Shown: positions 1 through 47,082 of the stretch, piece by piece
How positions within the stretch are numbered: the first letter of the stretch is position 1
How the letters are laid out: every line of letters begins with the position of its first letter
Source of the DNA: Escherichia phage vB_EcoS_WF5505
Reading direction: 5' to 3' (one strand)
Sequence record: NC_073060.1
Length of the DNA stretch: 47,082 bases
The notes under the pieces: generated by a model
Seen by the model: only the letters and a program-made list of their open reading frames with translations
Databases searched by the model: none
Told to the model about the DNA's origin: nothing
Made by a program: the position numbers and the translations under genes

Positions 1-103
1 CAGCAGATAGCGATCAACTTTTTCATACGCATGATTAATATTGGTTGCATTCAGCCTGGCACCCTGCTAGATTGGTTGCACACCAACGAGAGGACCAAAC
101 AAA

Positions 104-274
104 ATGAAATTTCCAGTAACCATCAAAGACGGTAAATCAACTATCACCTTCACCAGCAACGACCAGGGCACCTATGAAAGCGGGGCGACTTGCATGTCTA
201 CCCTGGACGATGTGATGATTCGTGTTAATTCCGGTAAAGCCTCGATTGTTGACGACAACACTAAGAAGGACTGA
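104..274 (+). CDS. Hypothetical small early protein (56 aa, MKFPVTIKDG...)
   Basis: ATG preceded by GAGAGG Shine-Dalgarno; stop 3 nt before next ATG; under 60 aa so absent from ORF track. Confidence 0.5.
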   Translation: MKFPVTIKDGKSTITFTSNDQGTYESGATCMSTLDDVMIRVNSGKASIVDDNTKKD

Positions 275-277
275 ACA

Positions 278-583
278 ATGAGAGCATTAATCTGGAAATA
301 CTCACGGGCCATAGCGAAGCTGGACGAAGCGAAAAACACAAACGGCAACGTAGACTATGCGCGCCAGTTTGCGGCACGGGCACACCAACACATCATGAGT
401 GCGCTCGACGATATGGACGCCAGCATGGATGACCTGGGTCCGCTGCGTAAGGCTATCCATGAATACGCGCTGGCATTCTCCCGTGAGCGCCTGGCCTATC
501 GCTTCGGTATTGGCGATAAGGCAGTGACAAACGTTGCCCGGATTAAAGCCCAGCGTGAGCTATTCGCCCAGCTTGCGAAATAA
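278..583 (+). CDS. Hypothetical early protein (101 aa)
   Basis: Track ORF in a tightly packed same-strand gene run; no recognisable motif. Confidence 0.6.
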   Translation: MRALIWKYSRAIAKLDEAKNTNGNVDYARQFAARAHQHIMSALDDMDASMDDLGPLRKAIHEYALAFSRERLAYRFGIGDKAVTNVARIKAQRELFAQLAK

Positions 584-592
584 GAGGCCAAA

Positions 593-862
593 ATGACCCG
601 TAGACGCGCAAAACAGCTTTCGTGGCATATCCCCCTGCATTGCATACGAATATGGGCTAAGAATGCGAATGAGGGCGATTCAGTGTTCTGGTGCTATCGC
701 GACGACGTTAAGCCGTTGACGCAGACTCGCTACTTGCACCAGTTCGCAGCACAACACGATTTCAGGGTGCGGACTTCCTTGCAACCAATGGGGATCCGTA
801 TTACATTACGCCGGAAGCCCGCCGTTGAGCGGGTAGGCAAACACTGGAGACTGAGCAAATGA
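593..862 (+). CDS. Hypothetical early protein (89 aa)
   Basis: Track ORF; stop overlaps start of next gene (ATGA coupling). Confidence 0.55.
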   Translation: MTRRRAKQLSWHIPLHCIRIWAKNANEGDSVFWCYRDDVKPLTQTRYLHQFAAQHDFRVRTSLQPMGIRITLRRKPAVERVGKHWRLSK

Positions 863-1203
863 TTCGAGTAACCGCACGCCACGAACAATCGGGGGCCACT
901 TACGATGTAATCGACGTTCGCGGCGCGTTCGTCATCTTCGGACGGGGTGACGACCGGCTGGCGCTGCCGATCGGTATGCTGAGCACATACGACTATTTCA
1001 AGCATAACGTCCGGTGTGGCGATGTGCTGCGCGATAAGCGCACCGGTGAGCTATGGACGGTGGCGAGTATTTGGGTGAAAGATAAACGGCAGCACACGTT
1101 ATTGCTCGCCCGCCCGGATTGCAAACAGCAAACTATTAACACTATTGGCCTGGTGGACTACACCCGCGTAGGCCGTAACGCTACCTGGAGACTGAGAAAA
1201 TGA
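859..1203 (+). CDS. Hypothetical protein, paralogue A (114 aa)
   Basis: Track ORF; shares GDVLRD-R-G-LW-V and GL--Y-RVGR motifs with the next gene. Confidence 0.6.
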   Translation: MIRVTARHEQSGATYDVIDVRGAFVIFGRGDDRLALPIGMLSTYDYFKHNVRCGDVLRDKRTGELWTVASIWVKDKRQHTLLLARPDCKQQTINTIGLVDYTRVGRNATWRLRK

Positions 1204-1832
1204 AATTACTATTCCGCCGTAACTCAGATGGCTATATCCTGAAGCCGATCCAGACCCTATCGAACTGGGTACGCCTCCACCACGTTGCGAGTGATAAAGT
1301 CTGGTGGGCGACTAAGGCAAAGCTGCCGGAGTACTACGAAATCCTCACACACGATATCGAGCGCGGCGATGTGCTGCGGGATATTCGCGACGGGCAATTG
1401 TGGGTCGTGGAATACGTGGGTCGGCACGGCCTGCGTATGACGTCCCGCAAGGATGGCGTAGCGGGCAACATGGTCAAGGGCATGACTTACTTCGGGCTAC
1501 TCCACTACGAACGAGTGGGCCGCAAGTACAGCCTGCGTGCGCGCCAGCCTCATGAGCGAGCGAACGCCATAGCGGACGTCGTTAACCGCGTAGCGCGGGA
1601 GGTGGAGCAGAAGACACGCGTTGAGTTCTGCAAGTCCCAGCCAGCCTATGCAACCTACGACGCGAGCAAAGCGCAGGAATTGATCCGCAGTGCCACGCAT
1701 GAAATCATCAATCACGTTGATGCCATGACGAACGCCAAGCGCCAGGCCAGCGAATACGGCGTAGGATTCATCCGTGTCGAACAAGACGGCAACATGACCG
1801 CCATCGACCCGCGCACGGTAATACTGAAATGA
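1200..1832 (+). CDS. Hypothetical protein, paralogue B (210 aa)
   Basis: Track ORF; N-terminal half is paralogous to 859-1203, translationally coupled (ATGA). Confidence 0.6.
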   Translation: MKLLFRRNSDGYILKPIQTLSNWVRLHHVASDKVWWATKAKLPEYYEILTHDIERGDVLRDIRDGQLWVVEYVGRHGLRMTSRKDGVAGNMVKGMTYFGLLHYERVGRKYSLRARQPHERANAIADVVNRVAREVEQKTRVEFCKSQPAYATYDASKAQELIRSATHEIINHVDAMTNAKRQASEYGVGFIRVEQDGNMTAIDPRTVILK

Positions 1833-1953
1833 GCGCAACTATCCGTGATATGCTTATGCATAACCGCTTTGAGATAGGCGGGAGAGTGTTCTGCAATTAC
1901 TTCGTGGCGCGTGCTTGGGCGCGCCATATCGGAAAACCAGTAGGGGCAATACG

Positions 1954-2241
1954 ATGCTACACGATTTGATATTTTGGTTTGGTTTGGGGTGTGCGTCACT
2001 CTTTGCTATAGTGCTGGCGCTGTTGATTTGGATCTTTCTGGTATGGCCCGCGGTGGAAGCCGCCAGCATTACCCGGATGACGTTCCAGATATACAAGCGC
2101 CGAGGCATAACGGAACACCCGACCAGGTTGCGCATGTGGTGGCTATGGTATCTGGATATGCTTGGAGGCCGAAGGTTTGAGGCCGTCCGATCATCCGGGT
2201 GGGAATGGAAAGGCGTCGGCAAGTGGTCCATTTTCGATTAA
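1954..2241 (+). CDS. Small membrane protein (about 95 aa)
   Basis: ATG with AGGGG RBS, in frame with track ORF 1915-2241; hydrophobic helix FWFGLGCASLFAIVLALLIWIFLVW. Confidence 0.5.
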   Translation: MLHDLIFWFGLGCASLFAIVLALLIWIFLVWPAVEAASITRMTFQIYKRRGITEHPTRLRMWWLWYLDMLGGRRFEAVRSSGWEWKGVGKWSIFD

Positions 2242-27863: not shown

Positions 27864-29390
27864 ATGGCAGCGGGTACTATCTTATTAACCAATAACAGCC
27901 GGTCGGTAACGGGGACCGGTACGACGTTTTCGGCGTTCAAAGCCGGTGATTTCCTTTCTGTCGTAGTGGGGCAAGTCCCCTACACTATCGCGATTGAATC
28001 TATCGAAAGCAACACCGGGCTTACTTTGGTGCTGCCGTTTGACGGCCCAACGGCATCCGGCCTCGCATGGGATGGCGTTGCGCGCGATACCATGTCGCTG
28101 GCAACGATGGGCGTAACAGTCCAGGCACAGAAAGCACTGCGTATGCTTATTGCGGACGAGAACAACTGGCGTGCAATCTTCGGCGACGCTGAAGAAATCA
28201 CAGTTACGTTACCGAACGGCACAGTGATGCAGGGTATGTCGTGGGGCTACCTGTCGCAGCTAATGAAGCAGATCGACCCGGTGGAAATGCTCAACCTGCA
28301 ACAACAAGCCGCCGCATCTGAGGTCGCAGCGAAAGGATACCGCGACGAGGCCGAAGGCTTCAAGAACGATACTAATACCATCAAGACGCAAACCAACCAG
28401 ATTAAGACTGATACGCAGGCGATCCACGACGCCACCAATACGATCAAGACGCAAACCGACCAGATTAAGACCGATACGCAGGCCATCAAGGACCAGACCA
28501 ACCAGATTAAGACTGACACTGGCGTTATTCGAGATCAGGCCAACACGGCGAAGACTGACGCACAAGCGGCCCGAGATGCAGCGCAGGGATACCGCGACGA
28601 AGCCGAAGGCTTCAAAAACTCAATCGACCCCACTAAGTTCATGCAGAAGTCGCAGAACCTGGCGGACGTTGCCGACAAGTACACCGCGCGCAACATTCTG
28701 GGGGTGGGCGATGACAGTAACGTTAAACACGCAACATTACGCCTGAACGGTGGCGAATCATTAACATTCAATGAAGTGGAGGCTAACGGCTTAATTCTAT
28801 CAAACGCCTCGATGGGAATCGACAATTGGGTAGGCTTCACCATGCATGAATGGTACGCCGACTGGACACGCGCAGGAATTGTGCGTGCGGGTGACACCCA
28901 CGTGTCAGACTACCGCATCCACGTGTGGAAGAATGGGGCTACTGAGGCGCTATTCCGCTTCCTGCCGGACGGGCGTCTGATTCAGGGTAACAGCGGCAAC
29001 CCATCGTCGGCGGAGTTTCAGAAAGCACCGCTATCAGACCGGGACGTGAAGAAAGAAATCCAATACACGGACGGCGCGGAAAGTTACAACCGAGTACGGC
29101 AATGGCTACCAGCAATGTTTAAGTATAAGGAGTCGGACGTACAGCGTTACGGCCTTATCGCGCAGGACCTGGCCATGATTGACCCGGAATATGTGCACTT
29201 GCTGCCAGGACACGGAATCTACGAGGACGTTGTTGTTGGCGTGGACGAGGAAGGGAACGAGATTATCGAGCAAAAGGAGATCGGATACACCGACGATGTG
29301 CTGTCGCTTGACAGTAACGTGCTGTTGATGGATCTATGCGCCGCCTTCGTTCACCTGTTGCAGAAAGTAGAAAAGCTGGAAGGTAAGTAA
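27864..29390 (+). CDS. Tail fibre protein with C-terminal intramolecular chaperone domain
   Basis: N-terminal MAAGTILLTNNSRSVTG; 21-aa tandem repeats; C-terminal LSDRDVKK and GLIAQDL resemble S74 autoproteolytic chaperone domains. Confidence 0.75.
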   Translation: MAAGTILLTNNSRSVTGTGTTFSAFKAGDFLSVVVGQVPYTIAIESIESNTGLTLVLPFDGPTASGLAWDGVARDTMSLATMGVTVQAQKALRMLIADENNWRAIFGDAEEITVTLPNGTVMQGMSWGYLSQLMKQIDPVEMLNLQQQAAASEVAAKGYRDEAEGFKNDTNTIKTQTNQIKTDTQAIHDATNTIKTQTDQIKTDTQAIKDQTNQIKTDTGVIRDQANTAKTDAQAARDAAQGYRDEAEGFKNSIDPTKFMQKSQNLADVADKYTARNILGVGDDSNVKHATLRLNGGESLTFNEVEANGLILSNASMGIDNWVGFTMHEWYADWTRAGIVRAGDTHVSDYRIHVWKNGATEALFRFLPDGRLIQGNSGNPSSAEFQKAPLSDRDVKKEIQYTDGAESYNRVRQWLPAMFKYKESDVQRYGLIAQDLAMIDPEYVHLLPGHGIYEDVVVGVDEEGNEIIEQKEIGYTDDVLSLDSNVLLMDLCAAFVHLLQKVEKLEGK

Positions 29391-29393
29391 TGA

Positions 29394-29418
29394 GAAGGGG
29401 CCATACGGCCCCTTTTTT
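29394..29418. terminator. Bidirectional rho-independent terminator (GGGGCC-N-GGCCCC family)
   Basis: AAGGGGCCATACGGCCCCTT followed by TTTTTT; between tail fibre (+) and minus-strand module. Confidence 0.7.
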
Positions 29419-29992
29419 AGTTTGAGTTTTCCCAGTCCATTTTGCGCCGTACTAACGGGCTTTCGTAATATTCCTTGCCCTCCACTTCCACCAGAGGCCA
29501 GTCGTTGACAATCACGTATGGTTCCGCAATATCCTCAATCACGCCGTGTGCGCTATGTTGCCCGAACGATACGCCCACCAGGATAACACCGGCAACCCGA
29601 CGGGTGAGATACTCGCGAGCGCAACGCGCCTCTACCAGTCCGCGACGGATGCCGCTGGTGGCTTTGACCTCGTAGGTCCAGACGGCATCAATCATGTGCT
29701 CACGGAAGTCGGGGCCGGACTTAACCTTGCGTTTACCGACCATGATAATATCGCCGCGGTCGATAGTATTGGCGCTAAACAGGCCGGTACGCATAAGCAA
29801 GCCTTGCGGGATACAACTACGCCCGCCTGCCTGCCCTTCAAGGTACATGCCAGCAAACATCTCGCCCAGCACACCGACAAGTCGGCTTTGCTTGCACGCG
29901 TCAGACTTTAATCGCCACTGGTCAAACTCGACGCTCGCCAACATTGCCGCTATGTGGAATTGTTTACCGGTTATTTCGTATTCGCCGTACAT
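29417..29992 (-). CDS. Hypothetical protein (191 aa), possible PD-(D/E)XK-like nuclease
   Basis: Track ORF; candidate motif GDIIMV...(about 28 aa)...YEVK; assignment weak. Confidence 0.4.
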   Translation of the reverse strand: MYGEYEITGKQFHIAAMLASVEFDQWRLKSDACKQSRLVGVLGEMFAGMYLEGQAGGRSCIPQGLLMRTGLFSANTIDRGDIIMVGKRKVKSGPDFREHMIDAVWTYEVKATSGIRRGLVEARCAREYLTRRVAGVILVGVSFGQHSAHGVIEDIAEPYVIVNDWPLVEVEGKEYYESPLVRRKMDWENSN

Positions 29993-30034
29993 TGTGAAGC
30001 CCTCATTGCTGCGGGCCGAAGCCCGCTATTAGAA

Positions 30035-30628
30035 TTATTTAAGTGCGCTAGTCACCAGTGTTTTTTCCATATTGCGGAAGTCTTCCGGCGTCATGAGTAT
30101 TTTGGACCCATCCTCGCCAGTGAGCACTACCATAGGCTGGACTTCTTGATCTGCCACACCGAAATTGGCAGCTTTAACCGTCTTTCCGAACGAGGCCACC
30201 GTATCCTCGGCAACGCGCATTGCACTGTTATACGCATTAATCTCGCCATCCAGGCGCACGGACAGGTCCGAAGGCTTGAACGCGCCGCCGGTCTTGATAG
30301 GCCAACCTTTGAGGCTGTCGAATTGCGCTGCCGTTGTATCGATCTGAATCTCGTCATGCACGGTCATGTAAGACTCGCCCAGCAAAGCGGAATACGCAAC
30401 CAGATCAACAATATTGTCTTCCTGGTGCTTACGGTGCTGGCGCACCAGCTTCAGGCAGATCAGGAAGGTCCAGGCTTCTTGCTCGGTAAGGTCGCGACCG
30501 GTAAGCGCGTTAAACACGGCAGCGATTTGCTTCGCGCTGCGTTCTTCTTTCGCGTTATCATAGCCGTTCTCTTTCCCGCGCTGTTCCATAGTGGTGGCGG
30601 CGTTCTTGCAGTATTCAAATGCTTTCAT
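30035..30628 (-). CDS. Hypothetical protein (197 aa)
   Basis: Start MKAFEY with AAAGGAAAAC RBS inside track ORF 30035-30703; no clear motif. Confidence 0.5.
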   Translation of the reverse strand: MKAFEYCKNAATTMEQRGKENGYDNAKEERSAKQIAAVFNALTGRDLTEQEAWTFLICLKLVRQHRKHQEDNIVDLVAYSALLGESYMTVHDEIQIDTTAAQFDSLKGWPIKTGGAFKPSDLSVRLDGEINAYNSAMRVAEDTVASFGKTVKAANFGVADQEVQPMVVLTGEDGSKILMTPEDFRNMEKTLVTSALK

Positions 30629-30680
30629 GATGTTTTCCTTTTTAGTGGGGGCCGGATTGCCCCCGACGAGATAACTATAG

Positions 30681-30702
30681 TGCAACCAACCTATTGGTTG
30701 CA
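30681..30702. promoter_or_regulatory. Perfect 22-bp palindrome TGCAACCAA-CCTA-TTGGTTGCA (operator-like)
   Basis: Read directly; lies about 53 bp upstream of the 30628 minus-strand start and spans the stop of the HAD gene. Confidence 0.6.
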
Positions 30703-31161
30703 AGTAAATTTTGCTACGTTTATAGAATAAATTTTAGGGACCATATCGCTGCACGCCCGACGGATGGCGTCAATATTCTTAGCGCAGTCTTCAATGATGA
30801 CCAGTTCGGACACGTCCGCATAGCAAACCATTTTGAACACCGCGCACGCTTTAAATTCTGGCGGTGGGGTGTCGTCCAGCATGTGGCGCATGAACAACCG
30901 GCCCGTCGGGAATACTTCCAATTGCTTGGCGGTCGTATCCCAGCATTCGCGCTGCCGGTTAGTCAGATACGCTATCTCGAAGCCTTGCTCTTTGTACATG
31001 CGCAGCAACGGCAGCATGTCCATGTTCAGGTCTTCGCGGACGTGCGCTTTGTGCCACTTCGCCCAAAAGGTTGATTTGGTTTTTATGCCGGGCACCAGGT
31101 CAGCACGCGCATCACTTGAACCATTAATAACGCCATCCAGATCACAAATCAGTAGTTTCAT
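30691..31161 (-). CDS. HAD-superfamily phosphatase
   Basis: N-terminal MKLLICDLDGVI (DxDGV HAD motif I); 156 aa. Confidence 0.7.
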   Translation of the reverse strand: MKLLICDLDGVINGSSDARADLVPGIKTKSTFWAKWHKAHVREDLNMDMLPLLRMYKEQGFEIAYLTNRQRECWDTTAKQLEVFPTGRLFMRHMLDDTPPPEFKACAVFKMVCYADVSELVIIEDCAKNIDAIRRACSDMVPKIYSINVAKFTCNQ

Positions 31162-31382
31162 TTTAAGCTCTCAATAAGGGTGTAGCGGGCGCTTCGCGCA
31201 GTAACGGAGTTGCATACAAAATGGCAACGCTTGGTTATGACAAGCCAGCCGGTGAGGTCCAGGCCCAGGATGTATTCCGGGCGGCTGGCGCGCATCACTC
31301 GGTCGCGGCGCGGGTCAATGATGAAGTCCCTTTGCATTTGGTCCACTACCGCGGGGTCGCGGTCAACGATTAAGATATTCAT
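31158..31382 (-). CDS. Hypothetical protein (74 aa)
   Basis: Track ORF coupled to flanking genes. Confidence 0.45.
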   Translation of the reverse strand: MNILIVDRDPAVVDQMQRDFIIDPRRDRVMRASRPEYILGLDLTGWLVITKRCHFVCNSVTARSARYTLIESLK

Positions 31383-31848
31383 GTAGTTCTCTCTCGCTCA
31401 TTATTTCAATTTGTGCGCTGCCGATGGGCGGCGCTTCGTCAAATATTATCAATTGCTGGCACTTGTTATTGCTCGGCCCGACTTCACCGGTGACAGCGTG
31501 TATAAATCTCACCCGCCAGTCCAGAAGAATTATCAGGTTTGCAGTCTTCCGGGCCAGCCTCGCCCACTTCGTCGACGTGTCCTGATTCAGTAGCATGACC
31601 GTCCGGCGTCCGTGCGCTGCGCATTCGACCCACGGCAGCGGATCGGAATACGGCGGATTGCACCACTTCCACCCTTTCAACTCTGCCCAGTCCACATCAA
31701 GCGCGCTATGTTCTGCCGTGAAGTAACGCGGTAGCAGGTGGTTGGCATCGCTTGCCGCCATATCGTAACGGAATCGGTATTTCCGACGAAGCGGTTTGAA
31801 TAAAGCTGGCGGCGTGCGCCAGCTATCTTTTTGCTCACTCTTCTGCAT
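31363..31848 (-). CDS. DNA N6-adenine methyltransferase (phage Dam family)
   Basis: N-terminal DSWRTPPALF and catalytic NPPY motif (CNPPYSD); 161 aa. Confidence 0.75.
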   Translation of the reverse strand: MQKSEQKDSWRTPPALFKPLRRKYRFRYDMAASDANHLLPRYFTAEHSALDVDWAELKGWKWCNPPYSDPLPWVECAAHGRRTVMLLNQDTSTKWARLARKTANLIILLDWRVRFIHAVTGEVGPSNNKCQQLIIFDEAPPIGSAQIEIMSERELHEYLNR

Positions 31849-32299
31849 GACCTGGATCTATCGCGTATAAAGGGACTTTATTGCCGGTTTTCATAACGCG
31901 CTGGACGCGCTTTGACTCCTCGGCGCTCATTGGGCGCATATCAGTGCTATAACCACCGTTTGATGTGTGCCGCCACGCTATCAGCACCAGATCTTTCCGG
32001 TCGATCTTAGACTGGCGGCCCTTCGGTCGCACGTACGCCTCGGCCCGTTTGCAATGCTCGCGCAGACCTTCGGCAGTGATGCGGTTTAGTGCAACGCTGG
32101 TTGTGTATCCGGTGCGCTGCATAATCCCCATCAATTCGAAAAGCAGTTCGAAGCGCTCCTCTAGCTCCTGGCGCACTTTCTTCTCACCTTCATATAGCGC
32201 CTGTTTGGTGTCCGCCAACGCGTTCGCACGTTCGGCCTGTTCGCGGGCTTCGAGGCATTGCGCGGCCCAGTATGCTTTTTCTTCTTGTAAAATTTTCAT
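31835..32299 (-). CDS. Hypothetical coiled-coil protein (about 154 aa)
   Basis: Start MKILQEEK with GGAGA RBS inside track ORF 31835-32380. Confidence 0.5.
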   Translation of the reverse strand: MKILQEEKAYWAAQCLEAREQAERANALADTKQALYEGEKKVRQELEERFELLFELMGIMQRTGYTTSVALNRITAEGLREHCKRAEAYVRPKGRQSKIDRKDLVLIAWRHTSNGGYSTDMRPMSAEESKRVQRVMKTGNKVPLYAIDPGHAEE

Positions 32300-32381: not shown

Positions 32382-32705
32382 TTATTCGAAGAAATTTGGG
32401 TCGCTCATCACATCCACAAGATAAAGGTTGTTAAGGCGGTTGCCGTAATGGCCTGGCGTGCGCTGACGGCACACAACAGCGAAGCCTGGAGGGATTGTAT
32501 TGCCAGTCTCGATAATCCACGCCACGCGCGCGCCAGACAGCGTCTTGCCGTTGCATTCGATACGAGTACCGCCATCAGCGGTGTTAAGGTTGCCAATCTT
32601 GCAGCCGGTGGACTTCAGACGGATGACGCCGGTTTTGCTGTCGTAGGTGAATAACTGGTTAGTCATTGCAACCGAGAAGTCGATGGCTTCGAATGTAGTA
32701 TTCAT
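32382..32705 (-). CDS. Small HNH-like endonuclease candidate (107 aa)
   Basis: HNH_3-like pattern GARVAWIIETG...GHYGNRLNNLYL; degenerate, low certainty. Confidence 0.4.
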   Translation of the reverse strand: MNTTFEAIDFSVAMTNQLFTYDSKTGVIRLKSTGCKIGNLNTADGGTRIECNGKTLSGARVAWIIETGNTIPPGFAVVCRQRTPGHYGNRLNNLYLVDVMSDPNFFE

Positions 32706-33397
32706 TTTAAATTTTCCTCATTGACTGCTATTGCGAAGCCGCGCGGAGTGAGCGACCGGATTAATTTGGTGCGGGCAGATTTGCCACCGAGGCGACTATA
32801 CTGCTTCGAGTACCCTTTTTCAACGAATACCGGCTTTTTCTCCGGCATACGAAAGCCATTGCCGGTCCATAAACAGGTCAGCTTTGGATATGAATCGCGG
32901 TCGTTGATGTATTCCGGGAACAACGGATGTACGTCATCCTCCGGCAGATAGCCGCCATACTCCCACGGATCAAACGAGTGGTCTGGCTTGCGCCACTGGG
33001 TGGATAGCACACTGCGCGGATTCTCAATCATATATGGCACTTCAAAGAAGTCACCCAGGTAAGCGGCAATCTTCGCGGTGCGCACTGCCTTAAGCTGAAA
33101 GGCGGGGTCTTTCGCACGCTTGCACGGGAAAGCTGGCGCACCGCTCACCGCCAGATCCGTACACGGCGGAAACGCGTAGATAATATCCGGCGTGCCGAAA
33201 TCGCCATTCATCGCGCGGTCCACGAAGTCCAGATCGATAAACTCGTTACGATAGCGGATACCGCGACCATAAATCCGGTAGTCAAGGTAAGACCCGTGAT
33301 CGGCTTCCGAGTAGTTGAAACAGTAGCATTTATGCCCCATCTCGGCAGCGCGCTCTATCATCAAGCCGCTGCCGTCAAATAATGACCAGATAATCAC
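32702..33397 (-). CDS. Compact DNA cytosine-5 methyltransferase-like protein (231 aa)
   Basis: Motif I-like LFDGSG, motif IV-like FPPC, motif VI-like ENP at C5-MTase-appropriate spacing; too short for a typical target-recognition domain. Confidence 0.45.
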   Translation of the reverse strand: MIIWSLFDGSGLMIERAAEMGHKCYCFNYSEADHGSYLDYRIYGRGIRYRNEFIDLDFVDRAMNGDFGTPDIIYAFPPCTDLAVSGAPAFPCKRAKDPAFQLKAVRTAKIAAYLGDFFEVPYMIENPRSVLSTQWRKPDHSFDPWEYGGYLPEDDVHPLFPEYINDRDSYPKLTCLWTGNGFRMPEKKPVFVEKGYSKQYSRLGGKSARTKLIRSLTPRGFAIAVNEENLK

Positions 33398-34818
33398 TTG
33401 CGCACCTTCTTAGCTTTCATGTATTCCATCAAGTCGTCCTGGATGTCGCGCTTACCATCGCGGCGGTCCGCCACCAGTTCGTCCAGTGTCCCGCGTGCCT
33501 GGATAATATAGACGAATACCGGTCGAGGGTGCCCGGCTTGCATCTGGCGAACTGGCCCGATACGCTCCACGATCTGCGCAAAGTGCTCATAGTTCCACGT
33601 ATCCGAGAAGATAGCCAGGTGATGACCGCCGTCCTGCAAGTTAAGGCCGTGACCAGCCGATGCCGGGTGTGCGAACATGATGGGAATCTCGCCCCTGTTC
33701 CACGCTTCCATATCCTTATTGCCCTGCTTACCCTTACCCATCGCAACGCCGTGGGGAAACTTCTTCTTCAGACGTGCCAGGTCGTGCTTGTACTGGTACG
33801 CAACGAGCAACGGCGCTCCGTTCAACTCCTCTACGATACTTTCCAGCGCGTCCAGCTTGGCGTCGTGAATCTTCTCCCACTCGTCGGTCCGCTCTCCGTC
33901 TTCGTCCACCTTATACACGGCACCGGATGCAAGCTGAAGGCACTTGATGGTCTTAGCCGCAGCGTTCGCCGCTTCCACTGTTCCGCTTTCCAGTTCGGCA
34001 AATAGCTCACTCTCAAACTGGTCATAAATCTTGCGGGCTTTCTTCGGCAGGTCCACGACAACCGGCGTGTAGATTGGCTTGTCACATCCGAAGTATTCAG
34101 CCGCGTCCACGGTAAGGGATACATCGGACAGGCGCTGTTGGATCTCCTTCTCGGAGTTCTTTAGCGGGGCGTGCTGCATAGTGAAGCTGCCTGGCTTAAC
34201 AGGCTTGCTAATAAACCAGCGATCGGTGAATGCCTTATAGCTACTGCCGAGGCGTTCGCCACCGTCGACAAACCACGTCTGACCCCATAAGTCTTTTAGC
34301 CCGTTTGGCGCTGGTGTGCCGGTAAGGTTAATCCAGCGCTTGACGTGTTTATGTGCAATCGCTGCCAGTGCGCGGGCGCGCTTGCTCCCCTGCTTGCTAC
34401 GATAGCCTTTCAGCTTAGTCGATTCATCGGCAACAACCACCGTAAAGGGCCACGCATCGCCGTAATAGTCAACCAGCCACTCAACCACATCGTAGTTAAC
34501 ACAAACCACGTTAGCGTCGCTCTCAAGCGCGGCTATGCGGTCCTTCTCTGGTCCAGTGCCGTCTACGACCAGCAGGGATGAGAACCGCCATTTCTCCTGT
34601 TCCGGGGGCCATGTGCCGGAGGCAACGCGTAGCGGGGCCAGCACCAGTACGCGGTCCTCCTGGTTGGACAGGATGCCAGTCTGGAACATTTTGTTTAGCG
34701 CCCACATAGTCGCGCCGGTTTTACCGGACCCCATTGTCGCCCAAATATTGCAGCGCTCATGCTTGAGAATAAACGCGGTTATCAATTTCTGATATTCGCG
34801 ACGTCGGAATCGTGCCAT
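33394..34818 (-). CDS. SF2 helicase (SNF2/DEAD-like)
   Basis: Walker A MGSGKTG, Walker B-like VVVADEST; start MARFRRREYQK inside track ORF 33394-34908. Confidence 0.7.
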   Translation of the reverse strand: MARFRRREYQKLITAFILKHERCNIWATMGSGKTGATMWALNKMFQTGILSNQEDRVLVLAPLRVASGTWPPEQEKWRFSSLLVVDGTGPEKDRIAALESDANVVCVNYDVVEWLVDYYGDAWPFTVVVADESTKLKGYRSKQGSKRARALAAIAHKHVKRWINLTGTPAPNGLKDLWGQTWFVDGGERLGSSYKAFTDRWFISKPVKPGSFTMQHAPLKNSEKEIQQRLSDVSLTVDAAEYFGCDKPIYTPVVVDLPKKARKIYDQFESELFAELESGTVEAANAAAKTIKCLQLASGAVYKVDEDGERTDEWEKIHDAKLDALESIVEELNGAPLLVAYQYKHDLARLKKKFPHGVAMGKGKQGNKDMEAWNRGEIPIMFAHPASAGHGLNLQDGGHHLAIFSDTWNYEHFAQIVERIGPVRQMQAGHPRPVFVYIIQARGTLDELVADRRDGKRDIQDDLMEYMKAKKVRK

Positions 34819-34822
34819 ATCT

Positions 34823-35047
34823 TTATTCCGCCTTTTTCCAGACTTCGGTTTCACTGTTCCAATTCCTCTTTGTGGCGTCGTAGTTGGTGGCGTGTCCAAT
34901 GTGCACACCGGTCGCGCGGAAGCTCTTAAACTTCTGCCAGCACACTGTCAACGGCAGCGGGTAATTCATGCCTGCGATAAACCATACGCGATCGCCAGGT
35001 TTGCACTCTCCCAGCTTGGTGAGTCGGTAATGTTCTTTCATCGTCAT
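34823..35047 (-). CDS. Hypothetical protein (74 aa)
   Basis: Track ORF between helicase and Zn-ribbon genes. Confidence 0.45.
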   Translation of the reverse strand: MTMKEHYRLTKLGECKPGDRVWFIAGMNYPLPLTVCWQKFKSFRATGVHIGHATNYDATKRNWNSETEVWKKAE

Positions 35048-44945: not shown

Positions 44946-45159
44946 AAATCCTGGATTGCATAATGCACGGCAGCATGATGAGAATTGCGGTCGTTGATGA
45001 ACTAGGCAACCAATGCGAGTTGGATAATGGAGAGTGAAAAATGCAGTTTGCAGTTACAGCAGATAGCGATCAACTTTTTCATACGCATGATTAATATTGG
45101 TTGCATTCAGCCTGGCACCCTGCTAGATTGGTTGCACACCAACGAGAGGACCAAACAAA

Positions 45160-45330
45160 ATGAAATTTCCAGTAACCATCAAAGACGGTAAATCAACTAT
45201 CACCTTCACCAGCAACGACCAGGGCACCTATGAAAGCGGGGCGACTTGCATGTCTACCCTGGACGATGTGATGATTCGTGTTAATTCCGGTAAAGCCTCG
45301 ATTGTTGACGACAACACTAAGAAGGACTGA
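45160..45330 (+). CDS. Duplicate of 104-274 (small early protein)
   Basis: Inside right repeat, identical sequence. Confidence 0.5.
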   Translation: MKFPVTIKDGKSTITFTSNDQGTYESGATCMSTLDDVMIRVNSGKASIVDDNTKKD

Positions 45331-45333
45331 ACA

Positions 45334-45639
45334 ATGAGAGCATTAATCTGGAAATACTCACGGGCCATAGCGAAGCTGGACGAAGCGAAAAACACAAACG
45401 GCAACGTAGACTATGCGCGCCAGTTTGCGGCACGGGCACACCAACACATCATGAGTGCGCTCGACGATATGGACGCCAGCATGGATGACCTGGGTCCGCT
45501 GCGTAAGGCTATCCATGAATACGCGCTGGCATTCTCCCGTGAGCGCCTGGCCTATCGCTTCGGTATTGGCGATAAGGCAGTGACAAACGTTGCCCGGATT
45601 AAAGCCCAGCGTGAGCTATTCGCCCAGCTTGCGAAATAA
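45334..45639 (+). CDS. Duplicate of 278-583
   Basis: Identical translation in ORF track. Confidence 0.6.
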   Translation: MRALIWKYSRAIAKLDEAKNTNGNVDYARQFAARAHQHIMSALDDMDASMDDLGPLRKAIHEYALAFSRERLAYRFGIGDKAVTNVARIKAQRELFAQLAK

Positions 45640-45648
45640 GAGGCCAAA

Positions 45649-45918
45649 ATGACCCGTAGACGCGCAAAACAGCTTTCGTGGCATATCCCCCTGCATTGCA
45701 TACGAATATGGGCTAAGAATGCGAATGAGGGCGATTCAGTGTTCTGGTGCTATCGCGACGACGTTAAGCCGTTGACGCAGACTCGCTACTTGCACCAGTT
45801 CGCAGCACAACACGATTTCAGGGTGCGGACTTCCTTGCAACCAATGGGGATCCGTATTACATTACGCCGGAAGCCCGCCGTTGAGCGGGTAGGCAAACAC
45901 TGGAGACTGAGCAAATGA
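45649..45918 (+). CDS. Duplicate of 593-862
   Basis: Identical translation in ORF track. Confidence 0.55.
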   Translation: MTRRRAKQLSWHIPLHCIRIWAKNANEGDSVFWCYRDDVKPLTQTRYLHQFAAQHDFRVRTSLQPMGIRITLRRKPAVERVGKHWRLSK

Positions 45919-46259
45919 TTCGAGTAACCGCACGCCACGAACAATCGGGGGCCACTTACGATGTAATCGACGTTCGCGGCGCGTTCGTCATCTTCGGACG
46001 GGGTGACGACCGGCTGGCGCTGCCGATCGGTATGCTGAGCACATACGACTATTTCAAGCATAACGTCCGGTGTGGCGATGTGCTGCGCGATAAGCGCACC
46101 GGTGAGCTATGGACGGTGGCGAGTATTTGGGTGAAAGATAAACGGCAGCACACGTTATTGCTCGCCCGCCCGGATTGCAAACAGCAAACTATTAACACTA
46201 TTGGCCTGGTGGACTACACCCGCGTAGGCCGTAACGCTACCTGGAGACTGAGAAAATGA
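45915..46259 (+). CDS. Duplicate of 859-1203 (paralogue A)
   Basis: Identical translation in ORF track. Confidence 0.6.
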   Translation: MIRVTARHEQSGATYDVIDVRGAFVIFGRGDDRLALPIGMLSTYDYFKHNVRCGDVLRDKRTGELWTVASIWVKDKRQHTLLLARPDCKQQTINTIGLVDYTRVGRNATWRLRK

Positions 46260-46888
46260 AATTACTATTCCGCCGTAACTCAGATGGCTATATCCTGAAG
46301 CCGATCCAGACCCTATCGAACTGGGTACGCCTCCACCACGTTGCGAGTGATAAAGTCTGGTGGGCGACTAAGGCAAAGCTGCCGGAGTACTACGAAATCC
46401 TCACACACGATATCGAGCGCGGCGATGTGCTGCGGGATATTCGCGACGGGCAATTGTGGGTCGTGGAATACGTGGGTCGGCACGGCCTGCGTATGACGTC
46501 CCGCAAGGATGGCGTAGCGGGCAACATGGTCAAGGGCATGACTTACTTCGGGCTACTCCACTACGAACGAGTGGGCCGCAAGTACAGCCTGCGTGCGCGC
46601 CAGCCTCATGAGCGAGCGAACGCCATAGCGGACGTCGTTAACCGCGTAGCGCGGGAGGTGGAGCAGAAGACACGCGTTGAGTTCTGCAAGTCCCAGCCAG
46701 CCTATGCAACCTACGACGCGAGCAAAGCGCAGGAATTGATCCGCAGTGCCACGCATGAAATCATCAATCACGTTGATGCCATGACGAACGCCAAGCGCCA
46801 GGCCAGCGAATACGGCGTAGGATTCATCCGTGTCGAACAAGACGGCAACATGACCGCCATCGACCCGCGCACGGTAATACTGAAATGA
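46256..46888 (+). CDS. Duplicate of 1200-1832 (paralogue B)
   Basis: Identical translation in ORF track. Confidence 0.6.
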   Translation: MKLLFRRNSDGYILKPIQTLSNWVRLHHVASDKVWWATKAKLPEYYEILTHDIERGDVLRDIRDGQLWVVEYVGRHGLRMTSRKDGVAGNMVKGMTYFGLLHYERVGRKYSLRARQPHERANAIADVVNRVAREVEQKTRVEFCKSQPAYATYDASKAQELIRSATHEIINHVDAMTNAKRQASEYGVGFIRVEQDGNMTAIDPRTVILK

Positions 46889-47009
46889 GCGCAACTATCC
46901 GTGATATGCTTATGCATAACCGCTTTGAGATAGGCGGGAGAGTGTTCTGCAATTACTTCGTGGCGCGTGCTTGGGCGCGCCATATCGGAAAACCAGTAGG
47001 GGCAATACG

Positions 47010-47082
47010 ATGCTACACGATTTGATATTTTGGTTTGGTTTGGGGTGTGCGTCACTCTTTGCTATAGTGCTGGCGCTGTTGA
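47010..47082 (+). CDS. 5' fragment of duplicate of 1954-2241, truncated by window end
   Basis: Same sequence as 1954-2026; the window (and the repeat) ends inside the gene. Confidence 0.4.
   Translation, partial: MLHDLIFWFGLGCASLFAIVLALL

Follow-up and report, generated by a model that had tools for sequence, protein, structure and literature searches.

What two small genes without assigned function contribute to a phage, when they adjoin a hypervariable lateral tail-fibre locus, is the question raised by the DNA analyzed here, a stretch of 47,082 nucleotides from Escherichia phage vB_EcoS_WF5505 (NC_073060.1; hereafter the window). The original prediction, made from the letters of the sequence, recognized two open reading frames coding for proteins of 191 and 197 aa and proposed, from their position at the boundary of the tail-fibre module, that they could be accessory or anti-defence cargo. 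Both frames (here gene A and gene B) were borne out at the coordinates given in Table 1, on the minus strand of a Dhillonvirus genome that, once circularised, comprises 45,056 bp of unique sequence and shares 99.9% genome identity with Escherichia phage vB_EcoS-CHD5UKE2. The best explanation overall, held with moderate confidence, is that they form a bicistronic DNA-metabolism unit made of a predicted PD-(D/E)XK nuclease and a DUF6378 protein.

Gene order and transcription signals

Genes B and A form the bicistronic 3′-terminal part of a minus-strand DNA replication/modification block, in which a DNA polymerase, an SNF2 helicase, a C5-methylase-like gene, Dam, Ksap1 and a HAD-family phosphatase precede gene B and gene A, in that order. 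The two genes are convergent with the lateral tail-fibre gene of the plus strand and lie outside its transcription unit; they are part of the DNA-metabolism block, and the tail module at whose boundary they had been placed does not include them. The phosphatase matches PF03767 (Acid_phosphat_B) with an E-value of 4.8e-5, under the gathering score, and is labelled polynucleotide kinase/phosphatase in the annotations of UDS3lw and SM_S22. The mechanical ORF of gene B reaches a TTG at 30703; the start at 30628 yields MKA or MRA in 120 of 120 homologues, and the DNA alignment is concordant with it. In one related contig, L017, gene B and gene A overlap by 4 nt. No Rfam family and no tRNA was found in the whole window.

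Table 1. Coordinates of the features of the gene A–gene B locus and its surroundings in the window
Feature	Position	Strand	Description
Bidirectional hairpin terminator, common to the tail-fibre gene (+) and the A/B unit (-)	29392-29418	.	stem GGGGCC-ATAC-GGCCCC
Gene A, 191 aa	29417-29992	-	ATG start; predicted PD-(D/E)XK-fold endonuclease
Intercistronic hairpin, gene B/gene A	30011-30026	-	GCGGGC-UUCG-GCCCGC
Gene B, 197 aa	30035-30628	-	ATG start, AAGGAA ribosome-binding site; DUF6378-domain protein
GC-rich stem-loop, gene B 5′ leader	30645-30667	-	GGGGGC-aauccg-GCCCCC
Sigma-70-like promoter (predicted), gene B-gene A unit	30674-30703	-	-35 TTGCAA 30703-30698, 18-nt spacer, -10 TATAGT 30679-30674
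Perfect 9-bp inverted repeat TGCAACCAA-cctA-TTGGTTGCA	30681-30702	.	clade-specific TGCAACCAA motif
HAD-family phosphatase, 156 aa, upstream neighbour of gene B	30691-31161	-	
Ksap1	31158-31382	-	minus-strand block
Probable anti-Tmn homologue	31835-32299	-	minus-strand block

The perfect palindrome reported upstream of the pair is present, separated from the gene B start by 52 nt on the coding strand. The phosphatase gene ends within it, with the final three codons (C-N-Q) in the upstream half-site and the TAG stop in the 4-nt loop. Read as a terminator on the plus strand, the palindrome gives a match that is oriented antisense to the phosphatase gene. A single perfect 9-bp palindrome in 45 kb is close to the chance level; the 9-mer TGCAACCAA occurs in 13 copies at 8 loci of the unique 45,056 bp, where 0.3 would be expected, and is kept at syntenic sites in SM_S22, L003, L004 and L017. 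At the site of the palindrome, two direct copies of the motif are found in phage slur05 and, with the orientation reversed, in the distant relative L003; half-sites arranged as direct repeats argue for a protein-binding unit acting at the DNA level rather than an RNA hairpin. Paired TGCAACCAA boxes also lie upstream of the probable anti-Tmn homologue. The palindrome overlaps a sigma-70-like promoter predicted by a consensus scan (9 of 12 consensus matches), the sequence of which is near-identical in SM_S22, HK578, SECphi18 and StarDew; the promoter region is conserved in six phages, and the -10 element is retained in a distant relative. Since a recurrent conserved motif overlaps a sigma-70-like promoter, it is reasonable to call the palindrome a putative operator, as the original prediction did; no description of the TGCAACCAA box was found in the literature searched. 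Its reading as an intrinsic terminator or RNA element was rejected: the sequence after the hairpin on the minus strand is CUAUAG instead of a U-run, only four of its nine pairs are G-C, and the direct-repeat half-sites of the relatives cannot form a hairpin.

Three further hairpins are predicted within the unit or at its end. The terminator that it shares with the tail-fibre gene folds with -18.7 kcal/mol on the plus strand (z -4.35), where it is followed by UUUUUU, and with -15.7 kcal/mol on the minus strand (z -4.18), where the weaker UUCUCAUUACUU follows. The intercistronic hairpin reaches -14.6 kcal/mol over a 51-nt segment, with a z of only -1.86. Its stem is invariant or preserved through a G-U pair in nine phages, with a different loop in one phage, and survives in relatives of about 55% identity despite diverged flanks; this hairpin has no U-run in the window and is therefore not a canonical terminator. 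The leader stem-loop of gene B (-14.5 kcal/mol, z only -1.36) has no U-run on either strand, and its stem is retained with two-sided changes in other Dhillonviruses (GGGAGGC...GCCUCCC in slur05, GGGGCGG...CCGCCC in L003).

The predicted nuclease and the DUF6378 protein

A PD-(D/E)XK-like D...EVK arrangement had been pointed out in the 191-aa protein, and it is present, with D81 and D102 preceding E108-V-K110. The AlphaFold2 model of gene A, built on a shallow alignment of 8 sequences, has a pLDDT of 82.8 and a pTM of 0.81. Its elements (helix 31-54, strands 59-61, 82-88 and 100-112, helix 122-130, strand 135-143) give a predicted alpha-beta-beta-beta-alpha-beta core, as the PD-(D/E)XK superfamily requires. 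When the model was compared with the PDB by Foldseek, ranks 1-15 were all PD-(D/E)XK enzymes, the top matches including Hjc ST1444, HincII, SwaI, SPARDA and DpnI, with EcoRV, Mus81, AspBHI and the tRNA-splicing endonuclease as further matches of the superfamily; the matches are weak, the best E being 8.7e-3 and the TM-scores 0.2-0.38. In BFVD, a viral structure library, 16 matches were obtained at E ≤ 1e-3, with TM-scores mostly of 0.44-0.74; all come from phages and are comparable to gene A in size, and a few of lower rank bear the name of a restriction endonuclease, a Holliday junction resolvase or PD-(D/E)XK. G40, E44, D81, E108 and K110 are invariant in the family (19 sequences, 23-96% identity). 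In the model, E44 is placed in helix 31-54, D81 one residue before strand 82-88, and E108 and K110 in strand 100-112, so that the predicted catalytic signature E...(P)D...(D/E)xK appears on the expected helix and strands. D102 was rejected as the catalytic aspartate, since it is variable in distant homologues and, at 6 residues from E108, too near to lie on a neighbouring strand. The guess that gene A belongs to the PD-(D/E)XK fold is thus supported by the predicted structure and by residue conservation.

The nearest solved structure is that of the archaeal resolvase Hjc (PDB 2EO0 ST1444, 1HH1), to which gene A is similar in its predicted core, its small size and the placement of its putative catalytic residues: a glutamate of the first helix within G-x-x-G-E, an aspartate before the second strand and E-x-K on the third. 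However, gene A has 191 aa vs. 143 aa for Hjc, with an additional strand and helix at the N-terminus and a beta-hairpin and helix at the C-terminus, and no profile similarity between the two was detected. Comparison by hhalign of a 19-sequence gene A profile with Sulfolobus Hjc, a sequence confirmed identical to 1HH1, returned a probability of 0.6%, at the low sensitivity that a single-sequence template entails; HMM searches of PDB sequences with the single sequence and with 7- and 19-sequence profiles gave no meaningful match; and Pfam yielded no Hjc match. More generally, gene A matched no family of Pfam or NCBIfam, a Pfam scan of 10 distant homologues returned noise only, and PADLOC gave only a TmtA match of 9.5 bits (E 0.036) that is not meaningful.

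Gene A corresponds to phrog_10558 (E 2e-118), the function label of which is unknown, and its orthologues include HK578 gp26 and SO-1 gp26. The family is small, numbering only about 15 representatives among 1.84 billion proteins, and 185 records spanning at least 80% of gene A were retrieved by tblastn. Neighbourhoods were read from contigs encoding homologues and from an annotated phage collection; IMG/VR offered no loci for three distant homologues. In every context examined, among them Dhillonvirus-like contigs, the homologue lies in a replication, recombination or methylase operon. In T1-like phages of Klebsiella, Enterobacter and Pectobacterium it follows Dam in the operon, with lysis genes just after, and a C5 methylase is also present in the two Klebsiella/Enterobacter loci. 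Another homologue-bearing contig carries polA, a helicase, an MT-A70 methylase and a HAD phosphatase, and contig L020 a helicase, a Toprim primase and RusA.

The 197-aa product of gene B, described beforehand as devoid of any recognisable motif, contains a DUF6378 domain (PF19905) at aa 16-85, scoring 37.0 bits where the gathering threshold is 27.1 (E 4.3e-9), and the domain was found in all 15 diverse homologues scanned. Gene B also matches phrog_9871, phrog_474 (E 9e-19) and phrog_1167, the last two of which, like some GenBank records, carry the label “phosphofructokinase.” Neither gene B nor its 15 homologues have a phosphofructokinase domain, DUF6378 being their sole Pfam family even at E ≤ 10, and the label therefore looks like a propagated misannotation. 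Four helices are predicted in aa 3-86, followed by a variable linker (about aa 108-165) and a conserved beta-beta-alpha tail (aa 167-196); the 123 homologues have 130-235 aa, and their nested length differences are confined to the middle segment. Structure prediction followed by structural search, proposed as a check for both proteins, was informative for gene A, through a confident model with weak PD-(D/E)XK matches. For gene B the model was poor (pLDDT 46.5 from 121 sequences), so that only its secondary structure was used and its fold-search matches were discarded as noise; searches of PDB sequences and of PADLOC gave no match. From these data we infer that gene B codes for a four-helix DUF6378 domain with a disordered, length-variable linker and a small conserved tail. 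As in other phages with DUF6378, gene B is found among genes of DNA and nucleotide metabolism. The domain is N-terminal in gene B vs. C-terminal in proteins of 234-267 aa from T1-like phages, and the linker and tail that follow it are specific to Dhillonviruses and close relatives. DUF6378 is also present in many phages devoid of the gene A nuclease. Our guess is that gene B, expressed together with gene A, assists nucleotide or DNA metabolism as an accessory factor; a kinship of DUF6378 with MazG-like all-alpha NTP pyrophosphohydrolases or with Nmad1 is a suspicion, based on motifs only, that is not claimed.

Function of the pair and rival explanations

In the favored explanation, the B-A unit, which carries a conserved C(UUCG)G hairpin between its cistrons, would be transcribed from a sigma-70-like promoter inside paired TGCAACCAA boxes and would end at the terminator held in common with the convergent tail-fibre gene. 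Gene A would be a Mg2+-dependent DNA endonuclease in which E44, D81 and E108-x-K110 form a metal-binding, water-activating site, and it may cut branched or structured intermediates of replication and recombination or degrade unprotected DNA, most likely acting in the DNA metabolism of the phage itself and not against a host defence system. That gene A is an active PD-(D/E)XK nuclease of the DNA-metabolism gene set appears probable. Granted such a nuclease, its specialization as a structure-specific (debranching or repair) endonuclease is possible though doubtful. T7 endonuclease I (gp3) is a small PD-(D/E)XK nuclease whose gene lies among the DNA-metabolism genes of that phage; it debranches replicating DNA, helps in the breakdown of host DNA and is a domain-swapped dimer. 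It provides a functional analogy for gene A, to which it showed no sequence or fold match in the searches made. The debranching proposal is weakened by the dedicated resolvases with which, unlike Hjc, members of the gene A family share a genome: a VRR-NUC-like gene in Dhillonviruses, endonuclease VII in SM_S22 and RusA in L020.

The accessory anti-defence cargo initially envisaged, with a nuclease that would destroy a component or signal of a defence system or a gene B product that would inhibit a defence protein, is an improbable account of the pair. It has in its favor the adjoining hypervariable tail-fibre locus, the indel-prone middle segment of gene B, the lack of assigned function of both proteins and the company of Ksap1 and the probable anti-Tmn homologue, the presence of which means that defence-related functions do reside in this block. 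Ksap1, a Dhillonvirus product recognised by a host immune sensor, is the trigger of KpAvs2, and Ksap1 and anti-Tmn are the characterised Dhillonvirus genes of the block (PMC11564622, PMC11846954). However, these published genes are different ones, and the identity of gene A or gene B with either was rejected. Although they share the minus-strand block with the pair, Ksap1 and anti-Tmn are faster-evolving or variably present. Against six other Dhillonviruses, at a dS of 0.4-0.6, gene A has a dN/dS of 0.04-0.07 and gene B, over its alignable codons, one of 0.06-0.15, low values which denote strong purifying selection and also indicate that the annotated frames are the coding ones; Ksap1, at 0.12-0.36, is under weaker constraint. 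The 1.5-kb A/B region is covered over at least 80% of its length by 142 of the 155 matching records, most Dhillonvirus records carry the pair, and its synteny persists in relatives of only about 55% identity. Thus, neither the patchy presence nor the fast or diversifying evolution that marks accessory cargo was found, the gene B linker alone varying in length; PADLOC had no meaningful match for either gene, and the nuclease homologues of other phage groups also lie in replication operons. No functional study of gene A or gene B was found in the literature on DUF6378 and Dhillonvirus. The pair looks like conserved core, ordinary-looking DNA-handling genes rather than exotic anti-defence cargo, and an anti-defence role is unlikely.

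A different use of the predicted nuclease would be a restriction-like one, in which gene A, working with the products of the phage Dam and C5-methylase-like genes, would cut unmodified host or competitor DNA and spare methylated phage DNA, in the manner of the restriction-modification pairs of chloroviruses. Several observations point in this direction: fold matches to the type II enzymes HincII, SwaI, EcoRV and DpnI (the EcoRV/HincII/SwaI class occupying PDB ranks 2-11 and 22), the name “restriction endonuclease” given to BFVD matches and, in one GenBank record, to an orthologue of gene A, a narrow, orphan-like family diverging fast between lineages as restriction enzymes do, and a DNA methyltransferase encoded within the operon itself, or no farther than about 6 kb away, in seven of the eight types of gene A context. 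The proposal nonetheless seems rather unlikely. The TM-scores with this class are only 0.2-0.34, and gene A has 191 aa vs. about 240-260. The methylases of the window lie three to six genes upstream and not next to gene A, and methylases are common in such modules whatever else is present. Moreover, contig L017 keeps the nuclease and lacks the C5-methylase-like gene, one of the two methylase genes being dispensable in that relative, and no methylase is visible near the homologue of contig L016. E. coli is Dam+ and Dcm+, and an enzyme linked to GATC or CCWGG would therefore spare host DNA. Finally, the 94-100% protein identity of gene A over most of the genus is unlike that of restriction enzymes that switch specificity. 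Gene A could, on the other hand, be a PD-(D/E)XK-like protein without catalytic activity that binds DNA or plays a structural part, or its fold could be wrongly assigned and its E/D/E/K residues serve another chemistry; the weak PDB matches, the shallow alignment behind the model and the absence of profile similarity to a characterised nuclease in the searches made would fit such a case. It is hard to reconcile with the superfamily filling the first 15 PDB ranks and with four canonical catalytic residues that stay invariant down to 23% identity and are modelled on the expected elements, since inactive derivatives of PD-(D/E)XK enzymes usually lose these residues, and we give it little credence. 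A more elaborate proposal, of similarly low probability, would make the DUF6378 protein and the nuclease a two-component unit, in which gene B targets or regulates gene A through its linker and tail, host or competitor DNA is cut, phage DNA marked by the methylases is spared and expression is switched on by a regulator of the TGCAACCAA boxes.

Significance for Dhillonvirus biology

That phage replication modules hold small orphan PD-(D/E)XK nucleases and DUF proteins is common and will not surprise the specialist. Should the prediction hold, an uncharacterised, phage-restricted family without a Pfam family, PHROG 10558, would join the PD-(D/E)XK superfamily, and a testable core-gene annotation would become available for Dhillonvirus genomes, which are widely used in the BASEL and SECphi collections. 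Were the two-component proposal true, the pair would represent a restriction-like module, encoded by the phage for host takeover, in which the nuclease has a new partner protein. The analysis also gives a sharper map of a block already known for the Avs2 trigger Ksap1 and for a probable anti-Tmn gene; within it, genes A and B, with their likely functions in DNA metabolism, are poor first choices for counter-defence screens, and the recurrent TGCAACCAA box offers a handle on the transcriptional control of Dhillonviruses.

The gene pair and its neighbourhood

The first 2,026 bases of the window (1-2026) recur at its end (45057-47082), so that the genome measures 45,056 bp and the record is an assembly of it that was circularised or extended too far. 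Both open reading frames named in the original prediction are present at the coordinates it gave, on the minus strand, and are referred to here as gene B and gene A in order of transcription. The 1.5-kb region around them shares 99.9% identity with Escherichia phage vB_EcoS-CHD5UKE2 and is matched by 155 phage records, nearly all Dhillonviruses of Escherichia or Shigella (HK578, SSL-2009a, JL1, SECphi and BASEL isolates), 142 of which cover at least 80% of it. Both frames are true coding frames, and the genes are real, conserved and under purifying selection, with Nei-Gojobori dN/dS ratios against six other Dhillonviruses (dS 0.4-0.6) of 0.04-0.07 (gene A) and 0.06-0.15 (gene B). The mechanical frame of gene B extends upstream to a TTG at 30703; its start is the ATG (or GTG) at position 30628, which opens MKA or MRA in all homologues and has an AAGGAA ribosome-binding site.

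The minus-strand block reads SNF2 helicase, C5-methylase-like gene, 107-aa gene, 154-aa gene, Dam, Ksap1 homologue, HAD phosphatase, gene B and gene A. The C5-methylase-like product, which relatives annotate as a C5 cytosine methyltransferase, has no Pfam match at E <= 0.01, and its gene is absent from contig L017. Contigs with a gene A about 55% identical retain the order Dam, small gene, (phosphatase), DUF6378 gene and nuclease gene together with the convergent tail fibre, and in L017 the last two genes of this series overlap by 4 nt. In T1-like phages of Klebsiella, Enterobacter and Pectobacterium, an operon running from primase through Dam and small genes to the nuclease lies directly before the lysis genes, a C5 methylase being additionally present in the two Klebsiella/Enterobacter loci. 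Other gene A homologues occur on a contig with polA, a helicase, an MT-A70 methylase and a HAD phosphatase, on one with a helicase, a Toprim primase and RusA, and on one where small genes face a tailspike gene. The BASEL study treats Dhillonviruses as related to Drexlerviridae (PMC8594841), so some of the recurrence may reflect synteny inherited from common ancestors and not associations that arose independently.

Features of the gene pair, its control region and its neighbours
Feature	Position	Strand	Remarks
Lateral tail-fibre gene	27864-29390	+	Peptidase_S74 chaperone domain; convergent with genes A and B
Gene A	29417-29992	-	191-aa ORF; after gene B
Intercistronic hairpin GCGGGC-UUCG-GCCCGC	30011-30026	-	between genes B and A
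Gene B	30035-30628	-	197-aa ORF; 5' of gene A
Gene B variable segment	30134-30307	-	residues ~108-165; predicted disordered
Palindrome TGCAACCAA-cctA-TTGGTTGCA	30681-30702		52 nt 5' of gene B on its coding strand
Sigma-70-like promoter (predicted)	over palindrome region	-	TTGCAA, 18 nt, TATAGT
HAD phosphatase	30691-31161	-	directly before gene B
Ksap1 homologue	31158-31382	-	74 aa
Dam	31363-31848	-
154-aa gene	31835-32299	-	77% identical to CDS0035 of the related phage SM_S22
107-aa gene		-	between C5-methylase-like and 154-aa genes
C5-methylase-like gene	32702-33397	-	231 aa; methylase label in GenBank relatives; FPPC and ENP motifs
SNF2 helicase	33394-34908	-	head of listed block
TGCAACCAA copies	41, 72, 780, 3531, 3554, 11719, 11733, 27837, 30681, 30694, 32355, 32372, 41874		repeated in duplicated end: 45097, 45128, 45836
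C-terminal-DUF6378 proteins (T1-like phages)	L014 7727-8530; L015 8266-9009; L005 9172-9876	-

Fold and family of the gene A product

Neither Pfam nor NCBIfam has a family for gene A, and PADLOC gave only noise; the gene falls in PHROG 10558, where no function is assigned. Its family is very small: 5.8 billion proteins yield 8 clusters, and a set of 1.84 billion yields 15 representatives at E <= 1e-3. The AlphaFold2 model, built on an alignment of 8 sequences, is confident (pLDDT 82.8, pTM 0.81) and places a strand (3-8), two helices (10-21, 31-54), a strand (59-61), a helix (63-68), two strands (82-88, 100-112), a helix (122-130) and a strand (135-143) before further strands and helices. Structure prediction and fold search, which were among the checks proposed with the original prediction, lead to PD-(D/E)XK enzymes at all of ranks 1-15 in the PDB (Hjc ST1444, HincII, SwaI, SPARDA, DpnI), the best being the Hjc resolvase ST1444 (E 8.7e-3, probability 0.90), with EcoRV, Mus81, AspBHI and tRNA-splicing endonuclease at lower ranks and TM-scores of just 0.2-0.38. 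Among predicted viral structures (BFVD), 16 matches at E <= 1e-3, with TM-scores mostly of 0.44-0.74, are uncharacterised phage proteins of similar size, and a few lower-ranked ones are named restriction endonuclease, Holliday junction resolvase or PD-(D/E)XK. Membership in the Hjc family itself is not supported: HMM searches against PDB sequences gave no match, and hhalign of the gene A profile against Sulfolobus Hjc returned a probability of 0.6%.

Across 19 family members (23-96% identity), G40, E44, G64, R68, D81, E108, K110, Y128, I161 and W165 are invariant. The model sets E44 within helix 31-54, D81 directly before strand 82-88 and E108-V-K110 within strand 100-112, the canonical E...D...ExK arrangement, so that the D...EVK suspected earlier was correctly read, with D81 as the predicted catalytic aspartate. 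D102 was rejected for that role, being absent in distant homologues. Gene A adds a new and uncharacterised family to a superfamily that is already very well known.

Partial matches were also observed. A fragment in the record of the lambdoid Enterobacteria phage mEp021 (MH706966.1, 54408-54518) shares 86.5% identity with the C-terminal 37 residues of gene A, and the 68-aa metagenomic protein P0132 ends in the same segment; both may be recombination remnants. Thirteen separate stretches of P0139, a 4,001-aa protein from the representative search, match the gene A profile, the best at positions 16-71 (E 1.4e-5), which may be a repeat or low-complexity artefact.

The DUF6378 protein and the probable control elements

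Gene B had been described as lacking any recognisable motif, a description that does not hold: residues 16-85 match Pfam DUF6378 at 37 bits against a threshold of 27.1, making it a member of an already catalogued DUF. The same region matches PHROG 474 and 1167, both labelled 'phosphofructokinase'; gene B contains no PFK domain. T1-like Pectobacterium and Klebsiella phages encode 234-267-aa proteins with DUF6378 at the C-terminus (in three of the four T1-like phages checked, on the opposite strand just past the lysis genes), one of them annotated 'phosphofructokinase'; no PFK domain is detectable in these either, and the label, which they have in common with PHROG 474 and 1167, therefore looks like a propagated misannotation. 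The DUF6378 domain is widespread: it adjoins ThyX and methylases in a Faecalibacterium phage and lies 5' of the RNA polymerase gene in podophages, and one other phage has it close to a HAD/PNKP-like phosphatase.

The 123 gene B homologues are 130-235 aa long. In Dhillonviruses otherwise 70-96% identical, lengths of 130-199 aa arise from nested in-frame indels confined to the variable segment, the N-terminal domain and the tail VVLTGEDGSKILMTPEDFRNMEKTLVTSALK being conserved; the version in the window is among the longest. The AlphaFold2 model is unreliable (pLDDT 46.5) and its fold search gave only noise; all that it suggests is a run of four helices (3-86), then a disordered middle part, then a beta-beta-alpha tail.

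The palindrome reported upstream of the pair is indeed there. Its upstream half forms the final three codons of the phosphatase gene (C-N-Q), whose TAG stop follows within the 4-nt loop, and the palindrome/promoter region is near-invariant in SM_S22, HK578, SECphi18 and StarDew. The relative slur05 carries the two 9-mers as direct repeats, as does the distant contig L003, in opposite orientation and still abutting TATATT. These forms exclude a conserved RNA hairpin and fit a putative DNA-level protein-binding unit. The unique genome has 13 copies of the 9-mer TGCAACCAA, in most cases with a T after it, spread over 8 loci, compared with an expectation of 0.3; five loci hold direct or inverted pairs whose starts are separated by 13-31 bp. 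The sites lie between genes or at their ends, adjoining -10-like hexamers 5' of genes, for example the tail-fibre gene, the 154-aa anti-Tmn-like gene (a direct pair) and the Nmad5/scaffold divergent region. They are kept at syntenic positions in SM_S22 (12 copies) and in the ~55%-identity relatives L003, L004 and L017, and are essentially absent from T1-like loci. The 9-mer resembles a promoter or operator box specific to this clade, and because it is recurrent, promoter-associated and conserved at syntenic sites, 'operator' was a fair label for what is a real regulatory motif, with a putative binding factor.

The gene B leader has a GC stem that is conserved despite changes in both of its arms. 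The intercistronic C(UUCG)G hairpin is kept in ~55%-identity relatives despite diverged flanks, and there a T-rich stretch follows it; in the window no U-run follows either structure. The intercistronic hairpin might act in RNA stability or processing, or as an attenuator. The hairpin at the junction with the tail-fibre gene folds well on either strand (plus, -18.7 kcal/mol with a U6 tail; minus, -15.7 kcal/mol).

Role of the pair

Beyond the reality, conservation and purifying selection of the genes, the sequence shows their domain content, the conservation of the motifs and how the operon is laid out; nuclease activity of the gene A product and its role are inferred. The leaning is towards structure-specific or general DNA processing in replication or recombination, although gene A and its homologues occur alongside resolvases (a VRR-NUC-like gene, endonuclease VII, RusA). 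A restriction-like endonuclease is attractive given the methylase neighbours and the type II enzymes among the fold matches, but is weakened because the E. coli host is itself Dam+/Dcm+ and one methylase is lost in L017.

The accessory or anti-defence cargo originally proposed is the least supported reading. Neither the published anti-Tmn gene nor Ksap1, the trigger of KpAvs2, belongs to the pair: they are neighbours that evolve faster or are variably present. SM_S22 CDS0035 probably represents ORF35, the published anti-Tmn protein, since gene numbering and the described architecture of long N-terminal helices and a small C-terminal sheet agree (PMC11846954); the corresponding 154-aa gene is missing in HK578. 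Ksap1 of SECphi18 activates the Klebsiella Avs2 immune sensor, K30 and F60 matter for its recognition, and V60 is the state of the non-recognised SECphi6 (PMC11564622). The homologue in the window is 89% identical to the SECphi18 copy and, by our own position count, keeps L39, L47 and T50 with M30 and V60 instead.

We conclude that genes B and A form a bicistronic unit that closes the DNA-metabolism block and encodes a DUF6378 protein and a probable active PD-(D/E)XK DNA endonuclease. None of this would hold a surprise for a specialist; the most unusual details are the recurrence of the TGCAACCAA box and the varying length of the DUF6378 linker.
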